Source of the DNA: an uncultured Thermoplasmata archaeon
GTDB taxonomy: Archaea > Thermoplasmatota > Thermoplasmata > Lutacidiplasmatales > UBA184
Assembly (NCBI GenBank): GCA_963773945.1
Contig: CAVZDD010000005.1
Coordinates: 377,077-441,076 of the forward strand
Direction: 5' to 3'
Length of the DNA: 64,000 bases
Shown: positions 33,573 to 61,100 of the stretch, in pieces
How positions within the stretch are numbered: the first letter of the stretch is position 1
How the letters are laid out: each line of letters begins with the position of its first letter
The notes under the pieces: generated by a model
The model's input: the letters and a program-made list of their open reading frames with translations, nothing else
Database searches by the model: none
What the model was told of the DNA's origin: nothing
Position numbers and translations under genes: made by a program

Positions 33573-33674
33573 GCCGGTTGGAGAAATTCCGCGGTAGATA
33601 AGCGGTGGGGCTCTAAGGAACGCCTACCCCGCCGCGTGCGGGTGCAATCTGCATTCAACCCTGACGGCCCAGCG

Positions 33675-34004
33675 TTAGGACTTCCCTGGGGGCCGGTACA
33701 TGGCCTTGCCGGACTTTCCCAGAGCGTCGACCACGTCTTTGGCGGAGTAAAGGCGAGTGGTCTTCGTCGACTTGAGCGCGCCGCTCGCGACGACGGCGAG
33801 CACCGCGGCGTTCGCCGTGGTGTCGTCAGCCAGTTCAAGGATCGCCGTCCCGTCGTACTCACCAAAGTGATAGTAGAGCGCTACGAGTCGCCCGCCGAGA
33901 GACTTGGCGATAGTTTCCACGACACCCGTCCGGTCCTCGGGTTTCTTGACGAGGGCGGCCCAGGAGTCCTGGCTGTAGGCGAACTGTAACATGTAGTGCG
34001 GCAT
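33675..34004 (-). CDS. GYD-domain protein
   Basis: Motifs YYHFGEYDGTAI and LAVVASGA are GYD-family hallmarks. Confidence 0.75.
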   Translation of the reverse strand: MPHYMLQFAYSQDSWAALVKKPEDRTGVVETIAKSLGGRLVALYYHFGEYDGTAILELADDTTANAAVLAVVASGALKSTKTTRLYSAKDVVDALGKSGKAMYRPPGKS

Positions 34005-34200
34005 CGTAATTTTCCTCTCTGTTTTTCCTGCCCGTAGATTCCCGGGCTGGATGGTGCGCGACGGCTTCGGGATAATTCAACCTTCCGCGCAGGAGGCGCC
34101 CTTGCCGAAGGAGAGTCGGCGCCGAAGCTAGTTGCAACCAGCATTGCACCGTGCCCGTCGGCGGTGCGGGGCTTAATCTAACGAATCGGCATCTCGGCCC

Positions 34201-36141
34201 GTGGCCCCGAACCGACGACTCGCCGCACTGATGTTCACCGACATCGTGGGTTACACGGCCCTGACGCAGGCCGATGAATCAACCGCACTGAAGCTCTTGG
34301 AGCGGCACAATGGGCTCCTCCGACCCTTCTTTCCACGGTTCCATGGCCGAGAGATCAAAACAGAGGGAGACAAATTTCTCGTCGAATTCGATAGTGCCCT
34401 CGACGCCACAACGTGCGCGGTCGAACTACAGCGGCTTCTGTACGAGCACAATCTCTCCGCGGGGGCCGATGCCAAGATCGTGATCCGCATCGGAATTCAT
34501 CTCGGCGACGTCGTGCACACCGGCGACGACATCCTGGGGGACTCCGTCAACATCGCCTCCCGCATCGAACCGCTGGCGACACCGGGAGGGATCTGCGTCA
34601 CGGAGCCGGTGTATAGCCAAGTTCGGAACAAGATTCCGAACCGTCTCGAGAAGCTAGCGCCCCAGACTTTGAAGAATGTTCGATTCCCCATCGACGTGTA
34701 TCAGGTGGTCCTCCCATGGTTGGCCGGCGGCGCGTCCCCGGTGGGAGGCGACCACCCTCGGCTTGCTGTCCTACCTTTCTCCAACATCAGTCCGGATCCC
34801 AAGGACGATTACATCTCGGACGGCCTTACGGAGGAGCTGATCACGGTCATTTCGCAATTGCCGGGGGTCCGGGTCATCGCACGAACCTCGGTCATGCAGT
34901 ACCGGGCGACCACCAAGGCGGTGGCCCAGATTGGCGCTGAGCTGGGCGCCTCCTCCATTCTGGAAGGCAGCGTACGAAAGGCCGGGAATCGGCTCCGTAT
35001 CACCGCCCAGCTGATCGACGCAAGTTCCCAAGAACACTTGTGGGCCAGCACCTACGAGCGTGAGCTCAACGATGTGTTCGCCGTCCAGGCCGAGATTGCC
35101 AAGCAGGTCGCGGAAGCGTTGCGAATTGAGCTGCGGCCGCAGGAAGAGGCACGATTGGATACTCGGCGGAGCGTACGGCCCGAGTCTTATCTCGCCTATC
35201 TGAAGGGCCGCGCACTACTGTACCCAGGGTCGCGCAACGGCCAGCTGGCCGCGAAAGAACAATTCGAACTCGCGATCTCGTTAGACCCCCAGAATGGGGC
35301 GGCCTATGCAGGGCTGGCCACCGTTGTTCGAAGGATAGGCTGGTTCTTCGACCCTCGTCCTCGCGAGGTATGGGACGCTGAGGGGCGCCACGCCGCTGCG
35401 AGAGCTCTCGAATTGGAGCCGAACCTTTCCGAGGCCCACACGGCTTTATCGCTGATCTACTGGGACGACTTCGACTACGGGGCGGCCGAACGGGAAGTGA
35501 AGAGGGCTCTAGCACTCAATCCCAGCAACGCCGAGGCACACTACGTCTATGCTATGGTTCTCGAGGACCTAGCTCGGGCGGAAGAGGCGATCGTAGAGCA
35601 CCAGCTCGCTGCGGCCGCAGACCCTCTCGGGGGGGAGACGCTCGACCATTACGCCACATTGCTGATATGGCTCGGTCGAACCGACGAGGCGCTCCCGGTG
35701 ATTGAAAGGCGTAACCGGCTGATTGCGGATCCGAGGCGCTCGCACGACCTCCTGTCGGATTACCACCTAGCCCGCGGGGACCACAAGCGGGCTCTCGAAG
35801 AAGTAGACCTGCAGCTCGCGGAGGGCACTGACCCGGACGACGTCAGTGGCGAGTGGCAAGAACTGACCATCGCCTGGCGTTGCTTCTTGATTGGGGACAA
35901 AACTGGGGCCCGGTCGGTTCTGGCCAAAGTCGAATCTTCCCCTGCGGGCCCACTCTCGCTCTATCTCTGCGGACTGTACTATGCGCAACTCGGGGACATC
36001 GACGGCTGTTTCCGCTGTTGGGAGCGAGCCGCGCGGAACCGAGGCCTTCCGGCCCAAGGTCTGAGACTCGATCCGACCTTGGAGCCGGTGAGAAAGGACC
36101 CTAGGTTTCCGCATCTGTTACACGAACTGGGCCTCGCGTAG
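34201..36141 (+). CDS. class III adenylate/guanylate cyclase fused to TolB-N-like domain and TPR/bTAD repeats (646 aa)
   Basis: Cyclase core (MFTDIVGYTAL...KTEGDKFLVEF...RIGIHLGDV...GDSVNIASR), then LAVLPFSNISPDPKDDYISDGLTEELI, then C-terminal TPR repeats. Confidence 0.85.
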   Translation: MAPNRRLAALMFTDIVGYTALTQADESTALKLLERHNGLLRPFFPRFHGREIKTEGDKFLVEFDSALDATTCAVELQRLLYEHNLSAGADAKIVIRIGIHLGDVVHTGDDILGDSVNIASRIEPLATPGGICVTEPVYSQVRNKIPNRLEKLAPQTLKNVRFPIDVYQVVLPWLAGGASPVGGDHPRLAVLPFSNISPDPKDDYISDGLTEELITVISQLPGVRVIARTSVMQYRATTKAVAQIGAELGASSILEGSVRKAGNRLRITAQLIDASSQEHLWASTYERELNDVFAVQAEIAKQVAEALRIELRPQEEARLDTRRSVRPESYLAYLKGRALLYPGSRNGQLAAKEQFELAISLDPQNGAAYAGLATVVRRIGWFFDPRPREVWDAEGRHAAARALELEPNLSEAHTALSLIYWDDFDYGAAEREVKRALALNPSNAEAHYVYAMVLEDLARAEEAIVEHQLAAAADPLGGETLDHYATLLIWLGRTDEALPVIERRNRLIADPRRSHDLLSDYHLARGDHKRALEEVDLQLAEGTDPDDVSGEWQELTIAWRCFLIGDKTGARSVLAKVESSPAGPLSLYLCGLYYAQLGDIDGCFRCWERAARNRGLPAQGLRLDPTLEPVRKDPRFPHLLHELGLA

Positions 36142-36213
36142 GTGTAACGGCCATTGCACACGCGCCCCTCGAACAGATGATATAGTTCTCATACATGTAA
36201 CAAATGTATATCC

Positions 36214-36459
36214 ATGGCCTCCAAGACGGTTGCCCTCGATGTGGAGGCCTACGAGCTGCTGAAGCGTCAGAAGAAGGCGGACGAGAGTTTTAGCGACGCT
36301 GTCAAGCGACTCGCTCGACCTCGTCGGCCGCTCTCCACCTTCGCGGGCATCTGGAGCGACATGTCCCCGAAAGAACGGGAGGTGGTGGACCGCGTCTACT
36401 CCGTCCAGCGTGAGGCGGACCGGCGCCGGGAGGAGAAAATCCGGAAGATGTGGAGTTAG
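36214..36459 (+). CDS. VapB-type antitoxin
   Basis: 81 aa, immediately upstream of and coupled to the PIN gene. Confidence 0.55.
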   Translation: MASKTVALDVEAYELLKRQKKADESFSDAVKRLARPRRPLSTFAGIWSDMSPKEREVVDRVYSVQREADRRREEKIRKMWS

Positions 36460-36462
36460 GAC

Positions 36463-36849
36463 GTGAAGTGTCTCGACTCTACGTTTTGCATTGACCTCGC
36501 CAACGGGTTGGAAGCCGCACGGGCGAAGGCGGACGAGCTTTCCCAGGCCGGGGAGCGTCTTTCGATCCCAGCACCCGCTCTCACAGAATTCCTCGTGGGG
36601 GCCTTCCACCAAGGCGGTACCCGACTCAAACAGGCCCTGGCGCTCGCTTCGGAGCTGGAGGTTCTTGACGTCACAGAGCCGATCTGCGTGGACGCCGCCC
36701 GCCTGGGGGCGGAGTGTGCGCGTCGTGGATCTCCAGTGGGCACCTTGGACCTCCTCATTGCCGCAACGGCGAAGCATCACCACGCGCCGCTACTTAGTCG
36801 GGACAAGGACTTCAGCCGGATTCCTAACCTGACCATCGAGACCTACTGA
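36463..36849 (+). CDS. vapC: PIN-domain toxin VapC
   Basis: PIN acidic residues (FCIDLAN...E...D...D) and a 128-aa length. Confidence 0.75.
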   Translation: MKCLDSTFCIDLANGLEAARAKADELSQAGERLSIPAPALTEFLVGAFHQGGTRLKQALALASELEVLDVTEPICVDAARLGAECARRGSPVGTLDLLIAATAKHHHAPLLSRDKDFSRIPNLTIETY

Positions 36850-36909
36850 CCCCACCCCGGATGGGGTAGCTGGCACGACCCACGGGGCCCCCCGGGGAAA
36901 AAGGTCGGC

Positions 36910-37299
36910 CTAATCGGTCCGGTTCGATATCACGAATTCATTTCCGTCGGGGTCGGCGACCACCGCCAAAACGAACTTTACCCCGGGGAATTCGATCACC
37001 CGGGGTTCAGTGGTTACCGCGCCGCCGCGTCGCTTGATCTCCGCGCAGGAGGCCGCAGGGTCGGGGTGTCGGAGGATTAAGCCGGTTACCGTACCGGGTT
37101 CTCGCCCGCCTTCATCCCCTCCCTGGATGTGCATCGTCAGGAGTGTCGTCGTGCCCGGTAGGGCGAAGACGGCCCGGTTTCGACTCTCGTTGAAACTCAG
37201 CTCATGGAGACCGAGTACTTCCCGGTAGAACTTCCGCGCCTTCTGGATATCCGAAATGTGGATTGTCACTGCGTGCAGACCCGTGATCACGTCGTCCAT
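36910..37299 (-). CDS. VOC-family (glyoxalase/bleomycin-resistance fold) protein
   Basis: Tandem beta-alpha-beta-beta-beta modules and ADPDGNEF. Confidence 0.75.
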   Translation of the reverse strand: MDDVITGLHAVTIHISDIQKARKFYREVLGLHELSFNESRNRAVFALPGTTTLLTMHIQGGDEGGREPGTVTGLILRHPDPAASCAEIKRRGGAVTTEPRVIEFPGVKFVLAVVADPDGNEFVISNRTD

Positions 37300-37412
37300 G
37301 ATTCTGGATTTTCCGGGCCTTGTTAAGTTCTCCTGGGCCGGACCAGCACCGGGCTCACGGAGCCGTGTTCTAAGGGACTCCGTTCGAGTCGAGCCGGATA
37401 GACGTAGGGAAT

Positions 37413-37709
37413 ATGCCCCCCCCAGCCCACTCGGGGCCGGTGACCAACATGGCGGACGCCATTACAAGTCAGTCGACGATTTCTTCCCACGCGCGAGAGA
37501 ACGATTTGCCCCTCCGAGCCCGCATCGTGGCCTCGATCATCGGGCCGGTGGCCTGGCTTTCTTTCACGCTACTGTACGTGGGATTCTGGGCGAAGGGATT
37601 CACCCTCTTCCAGAGCCTAATCGTGATTCTGGTCTCGATCGTCATCTTGGCGGGCCTGATGGGGGCCCTGTGGGCTTCCTTGGGGTTCCGGTACCGCAAC
37701 TGGACGTAG
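37413..37709 (+). CDS. small 2-TM membrane protein
   Basis: Two hydrophobic helices; the start is uncertain (MADAITS at 37449 is possible). Confidence 0.35.
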   Translation: MPPPAHSGPVTNMADAITSQSTISSHARENDLPLRARIVASIIGPVAWLSFTLLYVGFWAKGFTLFQSLIVILVSIVILAGLMGALWASLGFRYRNWT

Positions 37710-37736
37710 GACCACTAAATCGCGCCGAGGGGGTGC

Positions 37737-38699: not shown

Positions 38700-38799
38700 T
38701 TGCGAGGAGAGGTCCAGTGCGCCGCGGGTTGTTAGAGTTTGGAGGGAGGCGGGCGCAACGCGCATTGCAACCGAAGCGGATGACGGCTCGGGGTTTGAG

Positions 38800-39784: not shown

Positions 39785-39865
39785 GTCCGACTCCCCCTCC
39801 CGTGGCCGGCCCGGTACGGGGCCGGCTGCCCGGGTGCGACGACTCTTGCAACAGTTTCAACTCCT

Positions 39866-41037
39866 AGTGCCGCTTCTAGCCAGGTAGTTCGACCTTCCGA
39901 CCGAAAAAGCTAGTGCCGGGGAGCGCATGCTCCCCGAGCATGGTCCGCCGGGTTCGAACGATCTCCAACGAGGAAGGTCAGAAGCTCGCCCGATTGTGCC
40001 GTCATCCGAGCGATGCCATCGAGCTCCATCGTGCGATGGTGATCCTCTCGAGCGCCCAAGGGTTCACGCCGCCCTACATCGCTCGATTGGTGGGCTACTC
40101 GCCCGACTGGGTTCGGACCCTCATTCGCGAGTTCAACCTCCACGGCTTCAAGATGCTCAAGCCGAACTGGAAGGCCGGAGGGAACTGGAAGTTCACCCAA
40201 GAACAGAAGGACCAACTGGTGGCGCTCGCCACCCGTCGACCAAGGGACCTCGGCCTCCCGTTCTCCCAGTGGTCCCTCGCCCGACTGCGGGACGAGGCGA
40301 GGAACCAGCGGATCGTCGACTCGATCTCGTTGGAGTGGCTGCGCATCGTACTGGACGAGGCGGACATGAGCCATCAGTCGATCAAGACCTGGAAGGCGTC
40401 AAAGGACCCGAAATTCGAGGAGAAACGACGGCGGATCGACCGGTTGACCCACCAGAAGCACAACCCGCCGATCGTGCTCAGCATGGACGAGATCGGCCCG
40501 ATCTCGCTCCAGCCCCATGGAGGGAAAGGATGGTTCCGCTCGGGGCACCCCGAGCGGATCCCCTCGACCTACAAGCGGCTCAAGGGCACTCGGTACCTCT
40601 ACCTCACACTGAACGTCTACCATCAGCGGCTCAGCGGTCGACTCTATCGGCACAAGGGCGGGGAACCCTGGCTCGATTACGTGCAGCGCGAGGTCGAGAA
40701 GTACCCCAAGGACCAACGGGTCTACTTGATCCAAGACAACCTGAGCGCCCACTGGACCCCCGACGTGCGGGGGTGGGCGAAGGACAATCGGGTGACGTTG
40801 GTGGCCTCGGCGACCCAAGCGAGTTGGATGAACCCCGTCGAGAGCCACGCGGGAGATCTGCAGAAGCTGGTGCTGGCGGGGTCGAACTTCGGGTCGTGGA
40901 CCGAAGTGCGGAGAGAGGTGGCGCGAGCGATCGCCTTTCGGAATCGGGAACGAGGACTACGCAAGAAGAGGTTCCGGGACACCCAGATGCGAAAGTGGAA
41001 AGTTCACCGACGACCTATCTGGAAGCGGCACTAGTTC
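39866..41037 (+). mobile_element. IS630-family insertion sequence with ~13-bp terminal inverted repeats
   Basis: Left end CTAGTGCCGCTTC (39867-39879) is the reverse complement of the right end GAAGCGGCACTAG (41025-41037). It encloses the transposase gene. Confidence 0.75.
39913..41034 (+). CDS. IS630-family DDE transposase
   Basis: N-terminal HTH (LIREFNLHGFKMLKP) and DDE_3 core (LSMDEIGP...LIQDNLSAH...NPVE). Confidence 0.85.
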   Translation: MPGSACSPSMVRRVRTISNEEGQKLARLCRHPSDAIELHRAMVILSSAQGFTPPYIARLVGYSPDWVRTLIREFNLHGFKMLKPNWKAGGNWKFTQEQKDQLVALATRRPRDLGLPFSQWSLARLRDEARNQRIVDSISLEWLRIVLDEADMSHQSIKTWKASKDPKFEEKRRRIDRLTHQKHNPPIVLSMDEIGPISLQPHGGKGWFRSGHPERIPSTYKRLKGTRYLYLTLNVYHQRLSGRLYRHKGGEPWLDYVQREVEKYPKDQRVYLIQDNLSAHWTPDVRGWAKDNRVTLVASATQASWMNPVESHAGDLQKLVLAGSNFGSWTEVRREVARAIAFRNRERGLRKKRFRDTQMRKWKVHRRPIWKRH

Positions 41038-42027: not shown

Positions 42028-42051
42028 GCAGGCCTCGGACGGGGGAGATCA

Positions 42052-43960: not shown

Positions 43961-43987
43961 GGTCGTCGAGCCGAGCCGACGCTCGAA

Positions 43988-45195: not shown

Positions 45196-47150
45196 GTGGC
45201 TTCGAACCGTCGCCTCGCCGCGGTCATGTTCCTGGATATGGTGGGGTACACCGCGGCGACTCAGGCCGATGAGGCCCGGACCCTGGTCCTCTTGGAGGAA
45301 CAAGAGGAGCTTCTTCGTCCGGCGTTGTTGTTGTACAAGGTCGAGAAGTCAAGTCGACCGGCGATGGATTTCTCGTGGAGTTCGACAGCGCACTCAAGGC
45401 GACCCAGTGCGCCGTTGAGATCCAGCGCCGAATCCACGAACGCAACGCAAAGAAGGACGCCTCCCCCCTCCGTTTGCGCATCGGAATCCATCTGGGCGAC
45501 GTGGAGCAACGGGGCAGCGATATTTTCGGAGACGCCGTAAATATTGCGTCCCGGATTCAACCCGTGGCCGAGCCCGGTGGAATCTGCATTTCCAACGCAG
45601 TGCAGGAACAGGTTCGGAACAAGATTTCCGACCGACTGGAAAGGCTGCCGCCTGCGAAGCTCAAGGGTCTCGAGGGACCGGTGGAACTCTACCGGGTCGT
45701 ACTGCCCTGGGAGGTCTCGGTCTCCCCGGCGCCGGGTTCGCAACGGGCCCGGCTCGCGGTCCTCCCGTTGGCCAACATCAGCCCCGACCCCAAGGACGAG
45801 TACTTCGCGGATGGTCTCACGGAGGAGCTGATCACGGTGCTCTCCAAGATTCGGGAGCTCCGGGTCATCGCCCGAACCTCGGTGAGCCAGTACAAGGGCA
45901 GTTCAAAGTCCGTCTCCCAGATCGGGGCCGAACTCGGGGTCGCCTCCGTCCTGGAGGGCAGTGTGCGCAAGGCCGGCAATCAGTTACGCATTACGCTGCA
46001 ACTCATTGACGTGGCCACCGAGGAGCACACGTGGGCCGAGAGCTACGACCGGGAGCTCGCCAATGTATTCGCCATCCAGGGGGAGATTGCCGAGAAGACC
46101 GCCGGGGCTCTTCGGGTGGAGCTGCTGGGCCCCGACCGGGAATCCATCCGCAAGCGGCCCACCTCCAACCTCACTGCGTACAATCTCTACCTGAAGGGGC
46201 TGCACGCCGGGCATGGGGCGTCCTACGAATTCTATGCCGAGGCCATCAAGTTCTTCGAGGAGGCGATACAAAAGGATCCGAGTTTCGGGGTGGTCCACGC
46301 CGTTCTCGCGAACGAGTACATCAGTCTGGCCGGGGAAACGGTCGCCCCGAACGAGGCTTTTCCCCGCGCCCGGGAGCTTATCGCGAAGGCGCTCGAGCTG
46401 GACCCGAACTCCTCGGAAGCTCACTTGGCGCGGGCCAACCTCGCCATGCAAGACGACTTCAACTGGGCCGTCGCCGAGATGGAGTTCGAGCGCGCCATCG
46501 CGCTGAACCCGAGCAGCGCGCAGGCCCATTTCTGGTACGCGATGCTCCTCCGGATCCTCCAGAGATATGACGAGGCGATCGACGAGCTCCGAACCGCGTC
46601 CGAGCTGGACCCCTTGTGGAAACTTCTGGAGTCGTCGCTGGGAGAAACGTACGTCCGATCGGGAGATTTCGCGACGGCGTTGAGCCTGGCCGAAGAACAA
46701 CGGGACCGAGATCCCGGTGACGCCGACCCGCATTTGCTCCTGGGCTTCATCTACTTGCGCGCGGGTCGGCGACCCGAGGCCCAGCGGGAGGCGGAACTCG
46801 CGGTCGGGCCCCTCGACCTCGGGGACCGGAGACGCCGCGCCGCCCTCTGGGCCCTGCTGGGGAAGCCCGACGAAGCGCGGAAAATCGTTGCGGAGATGCA
46901 GGACCCCGCGCGAGGGCAATATGCCAGTCCTTGGCAGCTCGCCGCCCTCCTCTCGAGCATGGGGGAGAAGGAGGCCGCGCTCGCGGTGCTGGAACGCGAC
47001 GAGCGGGAGGGTGGCAAGGGGGGCCTCTGGTTCCACTCCGGGGAGGTCGCGTTCGACCCGATTCGACGGGATCCTCGCTTTCAGTCGTTGCTGAGGAATC
47101 TCAACCTTCCCGGGGACGAGAAAGGCTCCGCCTCCGCGGGCGCCAAGTGA
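45196..47150 (+). pseudogene. second adenylate/guanylate cyclase-TolB-N-TPR gene, frameshifted in a GTT repeat
   Basis: ORF 45196..45540 encodes the cyclase N-terminus (MASNRRLAAVMFLDMVGYTAAT...). The paralogous sequence then continues in the +1 frame (GREVKSTGDGFLVEFDSALKATQCAVEIQRR...). The switch falls in gcgttgttgttgtac, around 45318-45336. Confidence 0.7.
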
Positions 47151-47263
47151 GCGACGGCAGGGTGCAACGACGAATGCACCTTTGGCTTTCCCGCGTCGTG
47201 GGTGCCGGCCGTTGCTCCCGCGGAAGGTAGATAGTCAGGATGGTGTAACACGCGGGGTTCCGC

Positions 47264-49259: not shown

Positions 49260-49474
49260 GGGCGTTCCTGTCCGGCGGGAATTCGTGCGTACTAAAGACG
49301 CTCGCGTCGGCGAGCCGATCCTCACATCAGCCTCCAGCCTGAGTCCGAAGTCGGGCCCCGGAGGAGAAGAACGCGGCGCCGTCCCACGGCCATCTCCAGG
49401 TCCCCTGGAATGGGGGTGCAACCCCCATAGTACCCTTCAGCCACTTCCGATGACGCGATGGAACCCGGGGTTTG

Positions 49475-50983: not shown

Positions 50984-52120
50984 TTGCTAGTAGGCGCAGC
51001 GGAAGTGGAGTTCGCCGGAAGGATGGCCATGATGGCAGCAGCACAGGGAGCCGCTTCGATCCAAGCAGCTGCCGCGGCAGCGATGCATGGAACCGAGGCT
51101 ATCCGAGGGACGTTAGCGCTCCGTGGATCGGAAATGATCCGGGGGACGAGCCTGGTTGCCGGTCGAATGGCTCGCGGAACGGAAGCGTTGAGGGGCGCGC
51201 TCGCCCTACATGGGTCGGAAGCGATCCGGGGGGCAAGGATGGTTCCCGGTCGGATGGCTCGCGGAACGGAAGCGTTGAGGGGCGCGCTCGCCTTACATGG
51301 GTCGGAAGCGATCCGGGGGGCAAGGATGGTTCCCGGTCGGATGGCTCGGGGAACGGAGGCTTTGACCGGCGCGCTCGCCCTACATGGGTCGGAAGCGATT
51401 CGGGGGACGAGCCTGGTTGCCGGTCGGATGGCTCGGGGAACGGAAGCCTTGAGGGGCGCGCTCGCCTTACATGGGTCGGAGGCGATCCCGGGGGCACGCA
51501 TTGTTCCCGGTCGGATCGCTCGCGGCGCAGACGAATTGAGTGGAGCGCTCGCGCTTCGTGCATCGGAAGCGATTCGGGGGGCAAGCATTGTTCCTGGCCG
51601 GGTCGCGCGCGGAACTGATGAATTGAGGGGCGCGCTCGCCCTACATGGGTCGGAAGCGATCCGGGGGGCAAGCCTGGTTGCCGGTCGGATGGCTCGGGGA
51701 ACGGAAGCTTTGACTGGCGCGCTCGCCTTACATGGGTCGGAAGCGATTCGGGGGGCGAGCACCGTTCCCGGTCGGATGGCTCGCGGAACGGAAGCTTTGA
51801 CCGGCGCGCTCGCCTTACATGGATCGGAAGCGATTCGGGGGGCGAGCACCGTTCCCGGTCGGTTGGCTCGCGGCACCGAGGCCCTGAGAGGTACGATGGC
51901 ACTCGGGGCGGCGGACCTGATGCGAGGAGCGAACGCGGCTCACGATCGGATTGCGGCCCAAGGCGCGGCGGCGACCCGTTTCTGGGCAGGGGTAGCGGCT
52001 CGGGGCGCGGCAGCGATTCACGCCATGGCCGCTCTCCAAGGACTTGTGGCCAAGGGGATCGGTACGAAGGCACTGGGCCTCAAAGCGTTGGCAAACCGAG
52101 GGGCGATTATCGCTCGGTGA
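50984..52120 (+). CDS. repeat protein with ~9.5 tandem 29-aa Ala/Gly/Arg-rich repeats (strand assignment tentative)
   Basis: GRMARGTEALRGALALHGSEAIRGARMVP reiterated. It has unique N- and C-terminal tails and is preceded by a 160-nt intergenic region. The minus strand also carries long ORFs (50845..51876) over the same repeats. Confidence 0.4.
   Translation: MLVGAAEVEFAGRMAMMAAAQGAASIQAAAAAAMHGTEAIRGTLALRGSEMIRGTSLVAGRMARGTEALRGALALHGSEAIRGARMVPGRMARGTEALRGALALHGSEAIRGARMVPGRMARGTEALTGALALHGSEAIRGTSLVAGRMARGTEALRGALALHGSEAIPGARIVPGRIARGADELSGALALRASEAIRGASIVPGRVARGTDELRGALALHGSEAIRGASLVAGRMARGTEALTGALALHGSEAIRGASTVPGRMARGTEALTGALALHGSEAIRGASTVPGRLARGTEALRGTMALGAADLMRGANAAHDRIAAQGAAATRFWAGVAARGAAAIHAMAALQGLVAKGIGTKALGLKALANRGAIIAR
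51075..51900. repeat. 87-bp near-identical tandem repeat array (~9.5 copies)
   Basis: Units such as ATGGCTCGCGGAACGGAAGCGTTGAGGGGCGCGCTCGCCCTACATGGGTCGGAAGCGATCCGGGGGGCAAGGATGGTTCCCGGTCGG recur head-to-tail with a few substitutions. Confidence 0.85.
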
Positions 52121-52216: not shown

Positions 52217-52657
52217 CTACTCAGCTAGCGCGTTGTTGGCCGCGCGGAGCCGACGGCTCATCTCCGCGAGAACACTGAGCACCACCACTGGTTCGCTCGC
52301 GGCGTACGCCCAAAACTCCCACTTCGACAGGGTGGCGAGCCTCGACGGACGGAGCGTCACCACATCGGCGGACCGGGGTTGATCGTCGAACAGCGACATT
52401 TCGCCGAAGAATTGCCCAGTGCCCAATCGCGCGAGGCGACGACTCCCGATCCGGACCTCCGTCGATCCTTCGAGGATCAGAAAGAGCCCATTCCCGGACT
52501 CCCCGCGTTTGACAACGGTCTCGCCCGCTGCAAAGTCGACCACCTTCGCATATTTCGCGAGGGTCGATAATTGACGTGGGGAAAGCACTCCGAGGATTGT
52601 GACCTTCTTGAGCCGTTTCACCAACTGGCTCGCCGAATACGTCGACGACTTCGACAT
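52217..52657 (-). CDS. standalone cyclic-nucleotide-binding (CAP-effector-type) domain protein, no DNA-binding domain
   Basis: GQFFGEMSLF and RSADVVT phosphate-binding cassette. The protein ends right after the C-helix (146 aa). Confidence 0.8.
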   Translation of the reverse strand: MSKSSTYSASQLVKRLKKVTILGVLSPRQLSTLAKYAKVVDFAAGETVVKRGESGNGLFLILEGSTEVRIGSRRLARLGTGQFFGEMSLFDDQPRSADVVTLRPSRLATLSKWEFWAYAASEPVVVLSVLAEMSRRLRAANNALAE

Positions 52658-52883
52658 GAGACCTCAACCTTCTACCTGAATTAAAACGTATCTCCGATTC
52701 GCCGTGGTTCGGTTCGGATGATCTGCGGTAGTCAGGGAGGCGGTCGGGGGTTCAGAACCAAAAGCTCCTGGTCCGCGTCCTAAAACGGCGGAACGCGGGA
52801 TGCAATCACCATTGCAACCATTGGACCTGTGAGGCGCGAACCGGAACATTTTTCTCGGGCGTCGTCGGTAAGGCGATGATTGT

Positions 52884-53180: not shown

Positions 53181-53259
53181 TCAGATACGGTTCTCCGCGG
53201 TGCAACCTCCGTTGCACCTGCCGCGCTAAGTCCTTGAGTTCAGTAGCCATTCCTAACCC

Positions 53260-53667: not shown

Positions 53668-53715
53668 CGGGATGCACGGGTGCAATCTCTATTGGGCGTT
53701 CGGATTAAGACACTT

Positions 53716-54144: not shown

Positions 54145-54315
54145 AACTGTGCTTCAAGCGCATCCAATCATAAGTCTAATCGATTCGGATTTCACCCAGT
54201 CAATTAGAGAGTCCTGCCCGTTCTCCAGATGGGGGGGGGAACAGCAATCCGCGGGTGCAACCCGCATGCACCCGTGCCAGCGAGCAATCTTTGGCCGGCC
54301 GGGCCGTCGGAGGGT

Positions 54316-55419
54316 TCACCCGCGCATCTGCAGCGGCTTTCCGTCAACCTCGACCGTAGCCCCGGCGTTGATCACCCATTGGAAGAACGGTGCCGAATTC
54401 TTGCCGCCGTAGAACTTGTTGTTTCCAAGGGAGACCATGACGGCACCGAGTTCGCGATCCTCCAGCTGGGGCGTGTTGTGCAATTCCGGATTCAATCCGA
54501 TTCGCATCTGGCCCGGCTGGTCTCGCCCCTTCCCTCCCTTCTTGAACTCCCGGTTGAACCGATCGAGCCCCTCCACGAACTCTGCATGGGTCAACTTCCC
54601 GTTTCGGAACTGGAAGTTCCCACCGGTGGCGACCGCGTCATCGTAGTAGTTGGTCCGATTGGCGACGATGGTTCCGTCGGCTACCGATTCGTCCAAAGCG
54701 ACGCTCACCGCTCCCGATGGAAGCGTGACGAGCTGATTGAAGGGACGCTTCCGTTCCGCGGGAGTGGGGAGTCCAGTGTCGACCCGCGCAGGTCGGTGCA
54801 GGAGACCCAACGTGAGGTCAGTGCCCTGGCCGTCCAGGATTCTCAGGCGCTTCCCTCGCTCGAGCGCTCGCGCGATCGGGCGTCCGACACGGGCCATCGC
54901 GTCGGAGCTGACCATAGTTCCCCGCACCAACTCGGAAATCCACTTACCCTCGTCGGTTTTGTACGCCTTCGTCAGCGCAGGATAAGGCCGACCGATCTCG
55001 AGTCGGGCTCCTCGGACTCCCCGCTTCTGGGCGGTGGCGTACCACTTGTTGTTGAACTCAAACAGCCGGTTAAGTTGAGCCGCCGGAAGGGCGTTGAGCC
55101 GCATGCGATCCCCCGGGCCCCACATGTGGATGTATACGTTTGTGTTTGCGAGAGCTGCCCATTCGTGGGCGGCTGGCTTTCCCAGGACTCGTTCGTGCCC
55201 GCCCCGAACCAAGTCCCAGTACGCTTCCTCATCCTCGTACGGGACTAGAACTTGTGCTCCCATCTGTCGGGCTTCGCGCGCGATGGCAACGGCCCACGGG
55301 AGGGTGTGGGTCCACGCCTCTACGATGACCCTTTCTCCAGATTTCACGTGAAGGTGGTCTTTCAGAACGGACCGCGCAAATTTTGCTTGGGTCGCGGGCG
55401 ACACCGGTGAGCTCGTCAT
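54316..55419 (-). CDS. M29-family aminopeptidase (AmpS/PepS-like)
   Basis: Length and conserved blocks (ANTNVYIHMWGPGD, GGNFQFRNGKLTHAEF). Confidence 0.75.
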   Translation of the reverse strand: MTSSPVSPATQAKFARSVLKDHLHVKSGERVIVEAWTHTLPWAVAIAREARQMGAQVLVPYEDEEAYWDLVRGGHERVLGKPAAHEWAALANTNVYIHMWGPGDRMRLNALPAAQLNRLFEFNNKWYATAQKRGVRGARLEIGRPYPALTKAYKTDEGKWISELVRGTMVSSDAMARVGRPIARALERGKRLRILDGQGTDLTLGLLHRPARVDTGLPTPAERKRPFNQLVTLPSGAVSVALDESVADGTIVANRTNYYDDAVATGGNFQFRNGKLTHAEFVEGLDRFNREFKKGGKGRDQPGQMRIGLNPELHNTPQLEDRELGAVMVSLGNNKFYGGKNSAPFFQWVINAGATVEVDGKPLQMRG

Positions 55420-55603
55420 GCCCGGCGCCTAACTCATGCACTCAATATGAACTTGGAGGGGACAGTCTATCCAAACTACCGAAGGTTCGACCGCAGGCCC
55501 CTCAAGCTTCGGGGGTGTAAACGCTCGAAATGCGTCCAATCCGCAATGCACCTTCGGGGGTGCGGGCCCTAGCAATCGCCCCGAAATGGGAAGAAAGGCC
55601 TCT

Positions 55604-56056
55604 CTACCAGTCGTAGGGGGATCGAAGATCGTGCCCGTTTTCAAGGACCGACTTGAGGTTCATCATGAAATACGTCCAACCCCGGATGGCCCCCTCGTAG
55701 AGATCGGTCCACGCGCTTCCGCGTCGGAATCCGGAGTGAGTAAACCGCAGAATAGTTCCGCCGCTATGAGGTTCGACGGACAGTTTCAATCTCGTAACGC
55801 CCAGTTTCTCCAAGCCGGGCCACTGCCAAGTCAACACTAGCTGTCTTCCACGAACGAACTGCACAACCTTCCCTGTATGAGTTGGGCCGCCTTCCCAAGC
55901 AAATGAGTAGCTCCCGCCTCTCCGCGCTGAAAGCGTAGCCTGGTCCATGAACCAACGGGTAAGAACTTTCGGTTCACTGATCGCCTTGAACACCCTCTTA
56001 GGTGACGCGTGAATGAAGATGGGCAACCGGATGGTCCGAGAGCCAGACGTCGACAT
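55604..56056 (-). CDS. SRPBCC (AHSA1-like) domain protein
   Basis: IFIHASPKRVFKAISEPKVLTRWF signature. Confidence 0.75.
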   Translation of the reverse strand: MSTSGSRTIRLPIFIHASPKRVFKAISEPKVLTRWFMDQATLSARRGGSYSFAWEGGPTHTGKVVQFVRGRQLVLTWQWPGLEKLGVTRLKLSVEPHSGGTILRFTHSGFRRGSAWTDLYEGAIRGWTYFMMNLKSVLENGHDLRSPYDW

Positions 56057-56274
56057 TGCAAATTGGCAAGTGGTCTACCCGCAAAAAGTCAATGCTTGCG
56101 CGATTGCCGCGAACACTCCGGCCCCTCCTCGACCGGCGGTCGCCTCCGCCGAGCGGGGTCCGTCGGGATGTTGGCCCTCATCCGATCCAGCCTTCAGCTC
56201 TTGCGAAACGGTGGTGTGCAATCCTCCTTGCACCCTCAGGCGGGGGTTGACCTCGTCCTTGTCTGCCCTTGGAT

Positions 56275-57033
56275 CTAACGTGCGGATGCCGGTCGACCAC
56301 CGAAGCGCACCGTCGCAGCGACGGCCACCGCACCCAGGATGGCCGCTGTGAGGATTGGAGGGGTCACTCGGGCAAACACCACGAGAGTCCCCCCGACCGC
56401 CGCCCCGGAGAAGAGGAAGATCACGGCGAACAACGCGCGACGCTGACCGGGACCCGTGATTCCGAGCGCTGGGAGGTCCATCATGAATCCCGTCAATGCC
56501 ATGGTGACGACCGTTGTGGACAGTCCCGGGACTGCGAGGTGTCGTGCAACCGCGTTTTGGAGGCCCATTCCATATGAACTGAGGGCGATCAACAAGTACA
56601 GCCCTGCCCCCGCCGGGTACCCACTTTGGATCACCCAACCGACGGAGAATGCAGCCATGCACGCGAAATGTCCGTACAAGAGCGCTGTGACTCGAGGGGG
56701 CCATCCGGTCGCCGGCTTGACATGTCCTAGGACCCGGCCGGCGAAGATTGCCCCGACCGAGAACCCGGCGAGTGCAATCACCGAATTCAGCGCAATGGAC
56801 AGATCCCGTTGACCGATTGCGAGCGCGAGGAAAATGATGTTACCGGTCATGTTGGCCGTGAAAATCCTTCCGAGCCCGAGGTAACTCACCACGTCGACCG
56901 AGCCAGACGCAAACGTCATGGCGAGCAACAAGAAGTCACGGGAGCGACCATCGGGGTCGACGGCCGGAGAAGCGGGGCGAACTCTACCAACCGAATTCGG
57001 ACGGGCGCTCACTTCGTCCCGGCTTGATTGCAC
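56275..57033 (-). CDS. YoaK/DUF1275 family membrane protein
   Basis: SVDVVSYLGLGRIFTANMTGNIIFLALAIGQRD hallmark. Confidence 0.75.
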   Translation of the reverse strand: MQSSRDEVSARPNSVGRVRPASPAVDPDGRSRDFLLLAMTFASGSVDVVSYLGLGRIFTANMTGNIIFLALAIGQRDLSIALNSVIALAGFSVGAIFAGRVLGHVKPATGWPPRVTALLYGHFACMAAFSVGWVIQSGYPAGAGLYLLIALSSYGMGLQNAVARHLAVPGLSTTVVTMALTGFMMDLPALGITGPGQRRALFAVIFLFSGAAVGGTLVVFARVTPPILTAAILGAVAVAATVRFGGRPASAR

Positions 57034-57182
57034 TCGGTCTTAATCAGGGACACGGGTCCGCACGGAGTACCCTGTTCCGCAACCCTGGAGCAGATCAATC
57101 GCAACCGGCCGCGGAACGCCGGTGCAAGCTGGAACCTGAGTTAGAAGATTAAGAAGGTTGGAGAGATGCCGAAAGAGAGAAA

Positions 57183-57488
57183 ATGGTCGATCGAGTGTAC
57201 AAGGCGGACCTGCCACGAATAAGACGAACCCTCGAGAAAATGCGAGAGGAGTTCTCCATTCGAGACTCTGCGACCAACTGGACCCAACTGAGAGTTGATC
57301 CGTTGCTGGAACACGTTCGGCGTCTTGAACGGGTCATAGGTTCGAGAAAGTTTGCAGGAGAATTTTCTCGACTGCGGAAGGGAGTGGTGTTCTTCCATTC
57401 TGATCTGGTATATCTTAGAACCAATGTCAAGGGGTTAGAGGAAATTCTTCAGCCGGAAAAGGGTCGTCGGGGACGAAAAGAGAAGTGA
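57183..57488 (+). CDS. hypothetical protein with Lys/Arg-rich C-terminus
   Basis: Lower GC, protein-like composition, preceded by AAGGTTGGAGAG. Confidence 0.4.
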   Translation: MVDRVYKADLPRIRRTLEKMREEFSIRDSATNWTQLRVDPLLEHVRRLERVIGSRKFAGEFSRLRKGVVFFHSDLVYLRTNVKGLEEILQPEKGRRGRKEK

Positions 57489-57615
57489 AAGGGCCACGGG
57501 GGGTGCAATCTTGATTGCACCCGGGTGGAAGCCGGGGTGAGGGCCAGCTTCCCAGCTTGGATTCGGCCTCAGGGCCTTGTAACTGAAATAGCGCACCGCA
57601 TCTTGCGGAGAACGC

Positions 57616-58455
57616 GTGAAGCCGCCGAACAAACCCCCCAAGAACCACTCGAAGCTGTGGACCCTAATGGTCTGCATCGCTATCTTACTGATCGGAATCG
57701 AAGGCGGTTATGAAGCGGGCAAGTCGCTGCCTGCTCCGAGCGCCACTCCCTCGACCGTAACGGGCTTGAACCGGCCTGCCGTTACCCCAACCGAGCTTGG
57801 CTGGTATCGCAACCAGTCCATTGTGTACGATAACTACGGACTTAATTCCAACATTACGGCGCCCATTCTGGCCTTTTTTGAGGCGGCGTCCCCCAACACT
57901 TCCGTGGCCGGGCAACGGAACGTCATCGATAGCCTGCCGGGACAGCCGAGCTATTCCGATTTCTGGCTGGTGTACAAGGTACTCGTTCCCGCCGGTTACG
58001 TGGCGAACACCATCCGTTCCTTCGAGGCTGCGGTGGTCTCTCAATACCCGATCGAAGCGACGAACCTCATCGTAAACTGCCCGGTTGAAAATCCAGGTGC
58101 GACCGTCCAAAACTCCTCCGCCGCGTTGGAGGCGGGCTGGTATCGCGGTCAAACGGTCTATTACTTCAACGCGGGAACGAACACCACGGGCTGGGGGGCC
58201 GTGATTCAGACGGCGCCGATTTACACGTTTGCCTACCCCAACGGAACCCCGGTCGCGGGCCAACACAACATTGTCAACGTCTACCCGGGCAACCCGGGCT
58301 ACAGCGACGATTGGAGTATCATCACGGTCGCGGTCAATTCTTCGTACCCCGCGAACAGCGTGAGGTCCGTCGGAGAGATCCTCGCGGAGGTTCGAGGGGG
58401 AGAGTTCTCCCTCCAAGCGACGAGGCTGTTCGTGGATTGCCCGATCGTGACGTAG
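57616..58455 (+). CDS. secreted/anchored glycoprotein-like protein with two internal ~110-aa repeats
   Basis: N-terminal TM (LWTLMVCIAILLIGI). Repeats GWYRNQSIVY...PGQPSYSDFWLV and GWYRGQTVYY...PGNPGYSDDWSI. Many N-x-S/T sequons. Confidence 0.6.
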   Translation: MKPPNKPPKNHSKLWTLMVCIAILLIGIEGGYEAGKSLPAPSATPSTVTGLNRPAVTPTELGWYRNQSIVYDNYGLNSNITAPILAFFEAASPNTSVAGQRNVIDSLPGQPSYSDFWLVYKVLVPAGYVANTIRSFEAAVVSQYPIEATNLIVNCPVENPGATVQNSSAALEAGWYRGQTVYYFNAGTNTTGWGAVIQTAPIYTFAYPNGTPVAGQHNIVNVYPGNPGYSDDWSIITVAVNSSYPANSVRSVGEILAEVRGGEFSLQATRLFVDCPIVT

Positions 58456-58608
58456 ACGGTCGCCGCGAGCTCCCCGAACTCTTCGCCTCTCTCCCTACGC
58501 GTCCCCCCTCGCCAAAATTAATTTGAAGCGGGATCCTGATGGGAGCTCCCCCCCGCGTTGCTCGCACCGCGGTGGTAGCGGGGTTCCATGATGGCCCGGT
58601 TCCGGAGT

Positions 58609-60840
58609 TCATACATTGAAGGTGACCTTCACTTCGACCGGTTCCTTGCCGACCGTCACCGTTCCGGCGGAATGGGACGTCGAATATCCGTGCACCCGCT
58701 TCACCGCGTAATCGTGCGACCCCTGGGCCACCCGTAGCTCAATTCGGGGACTGGTGGCGCTGACCGATACCCCGTCCACCGTGATCGACCACTCGGTTTT
58801 CTCGGGGAGCCCGATTTCAGTAAAGGCCACATTCTTCCGGCGTCGGGGTAGGAAGGCCAATAGCAGCGCGACCAGCAGGATAGCGACCAGGGCTCCGATG
58901 AGCGGATACTCCCACGACGGCGGCGTGTTCTGGGAACCGGGGACGGGGGTGACGGTCACGGTGGCGTGGGCCGTCGCGGTGACCGGGAGGAAGGCGCTGT
59001 CCGTCGCGGTTACACAGTAGGGAGTACTGGCGTCCAGCACCGGGGTCGTGTACACTTGGGCTGTGGCCAGCACCGTGCCCGTGCAGGTGCTTCCCGCGTA
59101 CCAAGCGTAGGTGTCCGCTCCCGTGCCCCCCGTGGGGTTGGCCGTCAGCTGCACGGTCTGCCCACTGCGGAGGGATGGGGCGGTCGGTGTGATCGTGACG
59201 GTCAACGGAACGGCGCTCACCGTCACCGTCGTGGTGGCCGTCGCCGTGACAGGAACGAAAGCGCTGTCGGTGGCCGCCACGCAGAACGCCGAAGCGGCGG
59301 TTAACGCGAGAGTCGTGTAAACTTGGGTCGTGGCGAGTACAGTGCCCGAGCACCCGCCCGCGAACCAGGCGAAGGTATCGGCCCCGGTTCCCCCCGAGGG
59401 ACTGGCGGTAAGTGCCACCGTCTGCCCACGGTCAATCGCGGGGGCATTCGGAGTGATGAGGACCACGAGCGGGAAGGCGCTCACCGTCACGGTGTCGGTG
59501 GCCATCGCGGTCGCGGGAACAGTCGAACTGTCCGTCACCACCACACAATACGTTGCGGTGAGCGTCAAGGCCGGAGTTGTGTACGCCTGGGTGGTGGCCA
59601 GTACGGGGCCCGAGCAAGTGCCCCCTGCGTACCAGGCATAGGTGTCCGCTCCGGTGCCTCCGGAGGGATTGGCCGTCAGCTGAATGGACTGTCCGCTGTC
59701 GATCGAGGGGGCATTCGGGGTGATCGTGACCGTCAGCGCCGGGTCGACCGCGATGGTGGCCACATTCGAGTACACCACCTGAGGGGTCGGCGAACTGCTG
59801 TCGGTGGCCCATACGCAGTAGTAGTCGGTCCCTGCCGAGAGCACGGGAGTCGTGTAGGATTGGCCCGTCGCACCGGGAATCAAGGTGCCCGAGCTGCATG
59901 TACTAGTGGAAGCGGCGTCGTACCATTGGTACGTGATGGGGGGGTTCCCGCCTGTCGCGGCCGTGGTCGAAAGTCCGATGGTCTGGCCCGCGTCAATGGT
60001 CGCGGTGGACGGGCTGACGACTCCGGACACCAGGGGCGAAGCCGCGGGCATCAACGCGACGGCGATCGCCGACCAGGACGCGCTCGTGAAGGTGCCCGAG
60101 AGCGAGATCGCTCCCGTGGTCGCATCGATCTCGTCTAACATGGCTCCGGAATCCAACTCCGCTCCAACGGTCGCCGCGTCGGTCACCCGCGAGTCTCCTC
60201 CGGTCGCCGCAATGGCGGTCGAGGCCCGCACCTCGACTCCGAGGATCACGAGGTCGTTCGCAACGGTGGTCGTCACCGTGGCGGTCGCGGTGGCGCCCGC
60301 CGCCGCCGAGCAGACCCCGGCGCCGGCGGTCTCGAAGGGAGCGGCGGCGGTCCCTTCCACATCGAGCGCGTGGATGGTGTAGAATTCGGCCGCCGGGTAG
60401 TTGACCGTGAAGGTGACGGACGTCTGGGCGGCGACGTCAGCCAGTCCGTAGATCGCCGTCACTCCGTGACCACTTCCGGCGATGCAGGGAGTGGACCCGA
60501 CAAGGGTGAGGTCGACGTCCCCTCCAGAGGTCACTTCTTCCACCAGAGAAGGCGCTCCGGCCGACGTGGTGTATTCGGTCACCACCACCACCAGTGTGTC
60601 TCCGGCGTCCACGTTCGCGATGGCACCCGTCGTGCAGGTGGTCAAGCCGTCGCACGCCACCGCTACGCTGCCCGCCGGCGTAACGAACGGGGAGAGGCCC
60701 ACTCCCGACTGACGTCCGGGCGTGCTCGCCTTCGAATGGGCGTCATTCAACTCGGGGAGAATCGCGACGGCCCCCAGGATCATCAGCGTACAGGCGAAGA
60801 GGGCAGGCAGCAGATGCGCTCGGCGTCCTTCGTGGTTCAT
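58609..60840 (-). CDS. large cell-surface protein with >=4 Ig-like ~85-aa repeats and C-terminal TM anchor
   Basis: Repeats ITPNAPxIDxGQxxxLTAxPSGGTGADTYAWYAGG.C.G.VLATTQ.YTT...YCV..TDS. TM helix YPLIGALVAILLVALLLAFL near the C-terminus. Start set at the internal ATG 60840 (MNHEGRRAHLLPALFACTLMILGAVAIL). Confidence 0.7.
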   Translation of the reverse strand: MNHEGRRAHLLPALFACTLMILGAVAILPELNDAHSKASTPGRQSGVGLSPFVTPAGSVAVACDGLTTCTTGAIANVDAGDTLVVVVTEYTTSAGAPSLVEEVTSGGDVDLTLVGSTPCIAGSGHGVTAIYGLADVAAQTSVTFTVNYPAAEFYTIHALDVEGTAAAPFETAGAGVCSAAAGATATATVTTTVANDLVILGVEVRASTAIAATGGDSRVTDAATVGAELDSGAMLDEIDATTGAISLSGTFTSASWSAIAVALMPAASPLVSGVVSPSTATIDAGQTIGLSTTAATGGNPPITYQWYDAASTSTCSSGTLIPGATGQSYTTPVLSAGTDYYCVWATDSSSPTPQVVYSNVATIAVDPALTVTITPNAPSIDSGQSIQLTANPSGGTGADTYAWYAGGTCSGPVLATTQAYTTPALTLTATYCVVVTDSSTVPATAMATDTVTVSAFPLVVLITPNAPAIDRGQTVALTASPSGGTGADTFAWFAGGCSGTVLATTQVYTTLALTAASAFCVAATDSAFVPVTATATTTVTVSAVPLTVTITPTAPSLRSGQTVQLTANPTGGTGADTYAWYAGSTCTGTVLATAQVYTTPVLDASTPYCVTATDSAFLPVTATAHATVTVTPVPGSQNTPPSWEYPLIGALVAILLVALLLAFLPRRRKNVAFTEIGLPEKTEWSITVDGVSVSATSPRIELRVAQGSHDYAVKRVHGYSTSHSAGTVTVGKEPVEVKVTFNV

Positions 60841-60871
60841 GGGCTCTGGCGGCCAGCCAGAGGCCGACCCT

Positions 60872-60903
60872 GTAGTTATACGACCGAAAAATCTATAAAA
60901 GGC
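60872..60903 (-). promoter_or_regulatory. strong TATA-type promoter for the surface-protein gene
   Basis: The minus strand reads CCTTTTATAGATTTTT...TATAACTA 35-62 nt upstream of the ATG. It is the most AT-rich patch in the window. Confidence 0.5.
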
Positions 60904-61100
60904 TCGGTCAGCGAGTCGCTCCAACTCGCCGCTGTTGCCGAGGTTTCCCGCCGTCGGCGATGTAGCACGCTTCTCTGAATCAGGGCTCGGCCGGCCCGCC
61001 GCAGTGACTTGCCGCTCCCGGGGGGACTACTGTGGGCCACCTCTGAGAGATCCGGTGCAGGTGCACTCAGGGTTGCACCTCCAGCACGCCCCTCCCCCGA

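Follow-up and report, generated by a model that had tools for sequence, protein, structure and literature searches.

A co-oriented 22-bp intergenic dyad as a possible junction site of accessory gene modules in soil Thermoplasmata

Between the genes of a 64-kb stretch of contig CAVZDD010000005.1 from an uncultured Thermoplasmata archaeon (the whole stretch is called the window here), a palindromic element recurs that a sequence-only reading had proposed to be either a regulon or a repeat family. Here, we show that the element extends over 22 bp as the dyad R-GG-TGCAA-Y-N4-R-TTGCA-CC-Y, whose asymmetric spacer gives most copies within a locus a common orientation, and that similarity between related loci ends abruptly at its edge in several comparisons. 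We tentatively propose, at a probability of roughly 0.4, that the dyad serves as a directional site, recognised by a protein, at which gene modules join or recombine, resembling the integron simple site or the Xer/dif site and belonging to neither class.

According to this proposal, a directional site of about 22 bp, in which inverted arms of 8-9 bp (R-GG-TGCAA-Y) enclose an asymmetric core of 4-6 bp (consensus GGNG), would be bound by a lineage-specific protein acting as a dimer. The dyads would mark junctions between independently moving modules, each usually a single accessory gene with its own TATA-type promoter, and recombination at or within the dyads might insert, remove, swap and occasionally invert modules, leaving one dyad per junction with its orientation kept. 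That a protein binds the dyad, that this protein is a recombinase, and that recombination is the function of the site and not a by-product are three steps that we infer.

The dyad, its orientation and its place between genes

The observed enrichment of the dyad is real. Exact copies of the core TGCAAY-N4-RTTGCA number five in the window against none expected, and 17 copies with at most two mismatches stand against 2.4 expected. Alignments were built from 40-55 sites of the window and related genomes, and in the oriented alignment of 51 sites the information was confined to the 22 positions of the full dyad, with none in the flanks. An arms-only 22-nt profile, applied at a threshold of at least 10 bits, gave 15 matches in the window, spanning 30,778-61,080, compared with 0.2 in the shuffled sequence that served as background. 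No match was found at 1-30.7 kb, though long gene gaps occur there, so the absence of the motif from the housekeeping block at 0-15 kb, noticed in the sequence-only reading, holds for this entire region. The half-sites TGCAA-N6-TTGCA (5-N6-5) have a fixed spacing equivalent to the 6-N4-6 geometry that had been correctly described, and 33 of 43 GGTGCA...TGCACC pairs are spaced by exactly 8 nt.

Each of the twelve sites listed previously was recovered at its position. Among four weaker half-sites proposed at the same time, the one now placed at 55532-55553 scored above the threshold, while those at 21247, 47627 and 57026 remained below it; three dyads, at 30778-30799 (exact), 49414-49435 and 39832-39853 (weak), were missing from that list. 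The arms at 57501 are perfect, but the site is not the perfect palindrome described earlier, because its spacer reads CTTG and lacks self-complementarity.

The window gave no match to any Rfam family, and a 20-mer scan of viral contigs returned single chance matches only among the matches listed. A metagenome scan with the 20-mer carrying the CTCC spacer gave 14 stretches, mostly chance matches in unrelated GC backgrounds, with L163 and L162 as the only true relatives (loci used for comparison carry L numbers). The literature yielded nothing relevant on an intergenic palindrome of Thermoplasmata or on archaeal repetitive extragenic palindromes (REPs) and their associated tyrosine transposases (RAYTs).

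The arm positions are 92-98% conserved, and the spacer positions are G in 59-69%. Mismatches occur in one arm without compensation in the other, and positions 6 (Y) and 11 (R) of the dyad vary independently, the combination C..A being common. Because mismatches are uncompensated and the arms are far better conserved than the spacer, the arms are constrained by sequence, which would fit recognition by a sequence-specific protein. L136 carries a variant of the same architecture, TTCAA-N6-TTGAA (GTG-TTCAAG-GAGN-RTTGAA-C at 1963, 2033, 6330, 7092, 7976, 11880 and 15482), whose two arms differ symmetrically from TGCAA/TTGCA and whose spacer likewise resembles GGAG. Likewise, the bases adjoining the arms are symmetric and lineage-specific, with GA-GG...CC-TC in some lineages versus TG-GG...CC-CA in others. 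The symmetric variant and the symmetric flanks point to a co-evolving binding specificity of a putative dimeric protein.

The 4-nt spacer is asymmetric, with the oriented consensus GGNG (G in 35, 30 and 32 of 51 sites at its three G positions), and the orientation of each copy was inferred from it by a G-versus-C count. Copies within a locus largely agree, in L140 (10/10), L125 (11/13) and L166 (7/8), with L163 divided 5 versus 3. A second recurrent spacer class, AAG-TCAC-ATT (TCAC/GTGA), shares the strand of GGNG in four loci, and if it is counted as co-oriented with GGNG, L125 and L163 become fully uniform. Orientation depends neither on the strand of the neighbouring genes nor on whether their start or their end adjoins the dyad (start/start 11, start/end 10, end/start 8, end/end 8). 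As sources of the polarity we considered GC skew, which shows no matching pattern, as well as the flanking gene strand, the nearer gene, and gene start versus gene end, none of which was related to it. In the window, polarity is clear at 49-57 kb. A symmetric dimer at the operators of a regulon gives no reason for such co-orientation.

Perfect copies of the dyad can form single-stranded DNA hairpins of -9.6 to -9.9 kcal/mol. With a laxer threshold, eight close pairs were detected, six of them 28-31 nt apart from start to start (L124 18246/18277, L125 17630/17661, L163 7887/7915 and 8903/8933, L166 9811/9841, L167 9813/9843). Most doublets combine one member with a TCAC or TCGC spacer and one of the GGNG type, their inner arms are usually degenerate, and the two members of the L124 doublet fold together into one extended hairpin.

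Genes related to that of the M29-like peptidase of the window (54316-55419) in a species-representative genome set all belong to metagenome-assembled genomes (MAGs) of Thermoplasmata archaea from soil or peat, which, together with AT-rich TATA-like boxes (TTTAAT, CTTAATC) that precede start codons by about 30 nt, bears out the archaeal host assigned in the sequence-only reading. The placement of these boxes agrees with archaeal promoters of a largely leaderless kind. Identity to the window is 99.1-99.9% for contigs of the same species, one of which has 2.0 Mb (ERZ25039507:contig_6243); another contig of this species has 0.99 Mb. In L125 and L140 the dyad occurs 9-13 times per 21 kb, in most gene gaps, and its density reaches about one site per 2 kb; since these two loci represent sister species, their sites are not fully independent. 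L125 comes from the 500-kb contig CAWBEU010000007.1 and L140 from the 655-kb contig JAKIWV010000002.1. Both have strong dyads upstream of M29, about 143 nt from the aligned start. The dyad is also carried by L166, L163, L134, L128, L127, L124, L171 and L172, and is absent, despite similar M29 identity, from L129-L133, L135 and, L140 aside, L137-L149.

L165, a related Thermoplasmata contig that has no dyads, contains another intergenic repeat of about 52 nt (ACGCGTTTTCTAAGGTCCAAGTCACGGTCAGCCCAGACCATGTAGA) in six copies (at 6616, 7838, 8750, 9892, 18139 and 20018), all in one orientation; this repeat has a hairpin inside. The group as a whole may be characterised by intergenic repeats that share an orientation.

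The dyad is an element of gene gaps. In motif-positive loci, 59 dyads are intergenic (36 kb of gap DNA) versus 3 doubtful 'coding' ones (142 kb), and all gap types are used to a similar extent: divergent 16/40 (40%), convergent 15/40 (38%) and tandem 26/83 (31%). Gaps hold no dyad in 106 cases, one in 55 and two in 2, compared with a length-weighted Poisson expectation of 118.6, 33.5 and, for two or more, 10.9. The distance to the start codon ranges from about 43 to several hundred nt and is never less than about 43 nt; that to the TATA-like core promoter ranges from 8 to at least 40 nt, the dyad never overlapping the region of the TATA box and the B recognition element (BRE). Many dyads lie 1-55 nt past stop codons. 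There is thus essentially no positional bias relative to gene starts, a lack which the sequence-only reading had named as speaking against a regulatory role. Because convergent gaps contain no promoter, divergent gaps contain no transcript end, and both are occupied equally, the dyads fit a terminator model as little as a promoter-operator model.

Comparison of related loci links the dyads to breaks in similarity. L125 and L140 share one long block (E<=1e-6), 9838-11243, which extends from dyad to dyad around M29 with 89% identity inside and no detectable similarity outside; a second match, of 426 nt, lies at non-corresponding positions. Similarity also ends abruptly at a dyad edge in four more comparisons (L163/L166, window/L171, L125/L163 and L124/L125), stopping within 0-3 nt of the dyad. 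Between the window and L171 it stops at the distal edge of the dyad on the cyclase stop codon (36140). Overall, high-identity alignments have 26 ends, of which about 5 are located in or at a dyad, versus about 1.2 expected if ends were random within gene gaps. Moreover, two genes were found inverted between their flanking dyads while the polarity of the dyads was kept: M29, which is oriented in one way in the window, L124, L128 and L134 versus the other in L125 and L140, and a flavin reductase gene in L166 versus L172.

Several points weigh against a role of the dyads as module junctions. An alignment can end at a dyad trivially, if the dyad has stayed conserved as an island while the gap around it diverged. 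A contingency test of breaks versus dyads was powerless because nearly all gene adjacencies are broken (103 versus 4 conserved) and paralogues confound the comparison. Strains of the same species (99.1-99.9% identity) displayed no gain, loss or movement of modules, and no pair of an empty and a filled site was found in the sequence sampled, about 430 kb from the clade. No recombinase, integrase or HUH/Y1 transposase was detected in the 64-kb window, its 6.5-kb extension (L174) or the larger L125 and L140 open reading frames (ORFs) tested. The polarity of the window is weak or ambiguous at 30-47 kb, flips near 58-61 kb and is reversed from 61 kb into the 6.5 kb past the window. Neighbouring dyads differ in their spacers, which would hinder a classical tyrosine recombinase, and, in contrast to integron cassettes, the presumed modules bring promoters of their own and lie in either direction. 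In addition, gaps were delimited by our own gene calls, based on GC content at third codon positions and corrected by database calls where these exist, which are approximate. It is because of the missing recombinase, the missing empty/filled pair and the lack of movement among close strains that confidence in a junction role is held at the value given above.

It is tempting to go a step further, to a possibility that we regard as doubtful: soil Thermoplasmata might possess a chromosomal gene-cassette system, analogous to integrons, in which a recombinase other than IntI, of the XerA type or of a yet-undescribed kind, would act on a single 22-bp 'simple site', shuffling, inverting and exchanging promoter-bearing single-gene modules and thereby building the accessory genome.

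Weighing the alternatives

A somewhat unlikely alternative, and the one that survives best, is that the dyad is a REP-like extragenic hairpin repeat, spread or maintained by some enzyme, for instance of the HUH/Y1 type, with the rearrangements a by-product of dispersed 22-bp similarity. Uniform orientation would follow from this model because the enzyme would act at the replication fork; IS200/IS605 elements, which target the lagging-strand template, show the same gene-independent co-orientation. The dyad is short, high-copy, extragenic and palindromic, its perfect copies fold into stable hairpins, and its variant family in L136 and lineage-specific flanks make it lineage-specific, as expected for such repeats. 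Doublets 28-31 nt apart can form one long hairpin, as REPINs do, and the presence of a different co-oriented intergenic repeat in L165 would also be accommodated. It is less easily explained by this model that conservation is far higher in the arms than in the spacer, a difference unexpected for neutrally decaying copies, that 30 kb of the same chromosome are devoid of dyads, and that divergent gaps are used equally with singles dominating and usually at most one copy per gap. REPs carry a conserved GTAG or CGTC tetranucleotide at one end (PMC3733652); the dyad has neither this tag nor any conserved flank. RAYT subclasses have not been reported in archaea, and none was present in the loci read.

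An insulator or boundary role appears unlikely. In this model, an abundant dimeric protein would occupy one site per gap and separate transcription units, as a block to read-through or a topological barrier, and rearrangements would survive only outside a dyad-bounded unit. The single dyad per gap in all three gap types agrees with such a role, as do the distance of at least about 43 nt from start codons, which keeps the dyad off the TATA/BRE region, the frequent position within 55 nt of a stop codon, the constrained arms with their symmetric L136 variant, and the doublet spacing of about 30-31 bp, corresponding to three helical turns. Left unexplained are the asymmetric spacer and uniform orientation, the absence of dyads from many long gaps at 14-30 kb, and the end of similarity within 0-3 nt of the dyad instead of at a variable distance beyond it; furthermore, dyads are decaying in some species without replacement.

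We consider it improbable that the dyad is an operator of a CRP/FNR-like or other helix-turn-helix (HTH) regulator controlling a stress or accessory regulon, possibly tied to the local adenylate cyclases and the cyclic nucleotide (cNMP)-binding protein, as the sequence-only reading had favoured. Its 5-N6-5 geometry is that of CRP sites, its half-sites do not covary as RNA pairs would, many dyads lie upstream of genes, among them the orthologous site upstream of M29 retained in L125 and L140, and cyclases and cNMP-binding proteins are abundant in the lineage. Against this stand the occupancy of 38% of convergent gaps, like that of other gap types, the varying distance to a TATA-like box without overlap, an orientation that is uniform whatever the gene strand, the end of similarity at dyads, and a density of up to about 1 site per 2 kb. 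L171 has an orthologous dyad at the cyclase 3' end, with the same GGCC spacer as the window site at 36140; it keeps this 3' dyad, whereas the dyads upstream of the cyclase were not retained with the gene. The product of the cNMP-binding gene (52217-52657) consists of the cNMP-binding domain only, without an HTH or other DNA-binding domain. The protein encoded at 15972-16889 gave weak winged HTH (wHTH)/HTH_Crp_2 matches and has no sensor domain. Of the two possibilities raised initially, the repeat family was the right one, and dense intergenic palindromes should not be called regulons before convergent gaps have been checked.

Most improbable of all is an element acting at the RNA level, in which the dyad would form a hairpin at the 3' ends of transcripts and either stabilise them or terminate transcription in both directions: the dyad can fold stably and many copies lie shortly past stop codons or in convergent gaps, but 40% of divergent gaps hold one upstream of promoters of the leaderless type, a position that would escape transcription, compensatory changes are lacking, no Rfam family matches, and no T-tract follows the hairpin. 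A scan for hairpins followed by a T-run gave 13 hits versus 13.7 expected, and only the 54254 variant among 16 dyads overlaps one, so that an intrinsic terminator (G+C-rich hairpin plus T-run) was rejected. A sigma-54-like or -35-like promoter was dismissed on inspection, as the spacing and GG/GC positions misfit and the host is archaeal. Copying with flanking sequence in the manner of a MITE (miniature inverted-repeat transposable element), which the sequence-only reading had also considered, was not seen: flanks are not conserved, no duplications accompany the dyads, and the IS630 inverted repeats of the window are unrelated in sequence, which also eliminates these as the origin of the half-sites.

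Sites and gene context in the window

The dyads of the window are collected in Table 1. Beyond the window end, contig JBAPPT010000028.1 (L174) holds two further dyads, at positions 3409 and 4696. At 61048-61080, an additional GGTGCA half-arm stands immediately ahead of the dyad (CCGGTGCAGGTGCACTCAGGGTTGCACC).

Table 1. Dyads of the window, scored with the arms-only profile
Feature	Position	Score (bits)	Sequence or spacer	Context
Dyad	30778..30799	25.3	GGCTGCAACCAATGTTGCACCC; 16-mer core exact	
Dyad	33640..33661	20.5		Tandem gap; 16 nt past GYD stop, 70 nt ahead of next start
Dyad	34130..34151	22.7		Divergent gap GYD/cyclase 1; conserved cyclase promoter GGGGCTTAATCTAACG 16-17 nt downstream
Dyad	36140..36161	22.8	Spacer GGCC	Overlaps cyclase 1 stop codon
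Dyad	38751..38772	21.4		5' end of Dyp peroxidase gene as called (start uncertain)
Weak dyad	39832..39853	10.8		About 10 nt (39854-39863) ahead of IS630 left inverted repeat
Dyad	47160..47181	24.9		12 nt past cyclase 2 stop
Dyad	49414..49435	19.2	Spacer CCCC	Tandem gap
Dyad	52798..52819	24.0		Divergent gap, cNMP-binding gene/DUF6487 gene
Dyad	53198..53219	24.4	Spacer CTCC	20 nt past a stop, 43 nt before YbjQ start
Weak dyad	53678..53699	11.6		48-nt gap between convergent YbjQ and VOC genes
Variant dyad	54254..54274		GGTGCA-N7-TGCACC (1 base shorter)	Downstream of M29 peptidase gene
Weak dyad	55532..55553	12.7		115 nt upstream of M29 start
Dyad	56214..56235	24.9	Spacer CCTC	Tandem gap SRPBCC/DUF1275
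Best dyad	57501..57522	31.4	GGGTGCAATCTTGATTGCACCC	9-bp single-stranded DNA hairpin, -9.6 kcal/mol
Dyad	61059..61080	23.4	Spacer CAGG	Spacer polarity reversed from here rightwards

The genes flanked by dyads are single accessory genes with their own TATA-like promoters, facing both ways. In the window, they encode GYD, two VOC/glyoxalase proteins, YbjQ, SRPBCC, DUF1275, the cNMP-binding protein, VapBC, GNAT, HxlR, a Dyp peroxidase and adenylate cyclases with TPR domains, and in the relatives SDR, aldo-keto reductase, NmrA, Fic, PIN and MFS proteins. The genes of the VapB antitoxin (36214-36459) and the VapC (PIN) toxin (36463-36849) directly follow the dyad on the cyclase stop codon.

The only transposase seen in the loci read is that of an IS630-family element (39864-41034; transposase 39940-41034) with 25-nt terminal inverted repeats (CTAGTGCCGCTTCTAGCCAGGTAGT). 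An identical transposase protein is encoded on an unrelated contig of 57% GC, L164, which lacks dyads and probably derives from another organism; this identity suggests recent horizontal spread of the element.

The family of TPR-adenylate-cyclases is hugely expanded in soil Thermoplasmata, with 7904 proteins at E<=1e-30. Its genes are located at 34201-36141 and 45375-47150 in the window and also occur in L165, L166, L167, L171 and L172, often with single-domain cNMP-binding proteins nearby, and a cyclase promoter box, GGCTTAATCTAACG, is conserved in three species about 30 nt before the start codon. On the 2.0-Mb contig of the same species (L173 10001-11912, corresponding to window 34201-36141), cyclase 1 is called as two ORFs of 491 and 147 aa, compared with an intact gene of 646 aa in the window, reflecting either a frameshift or an assembly error. 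Within an ORF of 363 aa without Pfam match (51029-52120, + strand), an 87-bp unit (29 residues) is repeated in tandem 8.6 times at positions 51124-51881, in frame and with copies that are 85% alike; this repeat causes a local spike in GC skew.

Comparison with known systems

If the dyads are module junctions, they would provide a simple sequence-readable marker of how accessory genomes are assembled and exchanged in abundant uncultured archaea of soil and peat, as well as a practical tool to delimit gene modules in the MAGs of these organisms. They would also constitute a functional parallel to bacterial integrons and dif modules, with a much smaller site and a different enzyme. A REP-like nature of the dyad would instead extend to archaea a class of elements described with transposases only in bacteria.

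With CRP/FNR operators (TGTGA-N6-TCACA, TTGAT-N4-ATCAA) the dyad shares a 16-bp core dyad of 5-N6-5 geometry and half-sites recognised by sequence. Unlike these operators, the dyads are not restricted to promoters and keep no fixed position to the core promoter, their asymmetric spacer and co-orientation have no counterpart, they are far too dense, and no clear CRP-type regulator was found nearby.

REPs, together with bacterial interspersed mosaic elements (BIMEs) and REPINs, are extragenic palindromes of 20-40 bp with high copy number and lineage specificity that occasionally occur as inverted doublets, in all of which the dyad resembles them; REPs are, moreover, known rearrangement hot spots. 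They mostly lie between tandem or convergent genes, often as inverted pairs, whereas the dyad uses divergent gaps equally, is typically single and co-oriented, with usually no more than one copy per gap, and lacks the GTAG/CGTC tag.

Sites of the Xer/dif type, such as the pdif sites of Acinetobacter plasmids, are likewise short and dyad-symmetric and bound modules of one to a few genes in differing contexts. Archaeal dif sites have two similar arms on which a single XerA acts, a further likeness to the dyad. In contrast to the dyad, with its 22-bp information content, dif and pdif sites measure 28 bp (11-6-11), and pdif sites alternate in orientation, whereas dyads are co-oriented and occur about once per 2 kb on the chromosome.

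Integrons differ from the dyad system in several respects. Their attC sites are 57-141 bp long and consist of two simple sites (R''-L'' ... L'-R') with extrahelical bases and the cores RYYYAAC/GTTRRRY, while the dyad has 22 bp and single dyads contain neither L boxes nor extrahelical bases. Half of the dyads read ATT where the integron core has GTT (at position 13, G stands in 26/51 and A in 23/51 sites), and the dyad is conserved in sequence, beyond structure alone. Integron cassettes are promoterless and co-oriented, whereas dyad-flanked genes bear promoters and face both directions; the host is an archaeon, and neither an IntI gene nor a platform of attI and cassette promoter (Pc) was found in the loci read. 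On the other hand, the dyads are, like attC sites, co-oriented and present once per gene unit, among small accessory genes of little synteny (VOC, GNAT, toxin-antitoxin and others), and unit boundaries coincide with them. The dyad resembles one simple site, with inverted 7-bp cores GTGCAAC ... GTTGCAC that match the integron cores at 6/7 positions each, and the rare dyad doublets of about 52 nt resemble an attC built of two simple sites.

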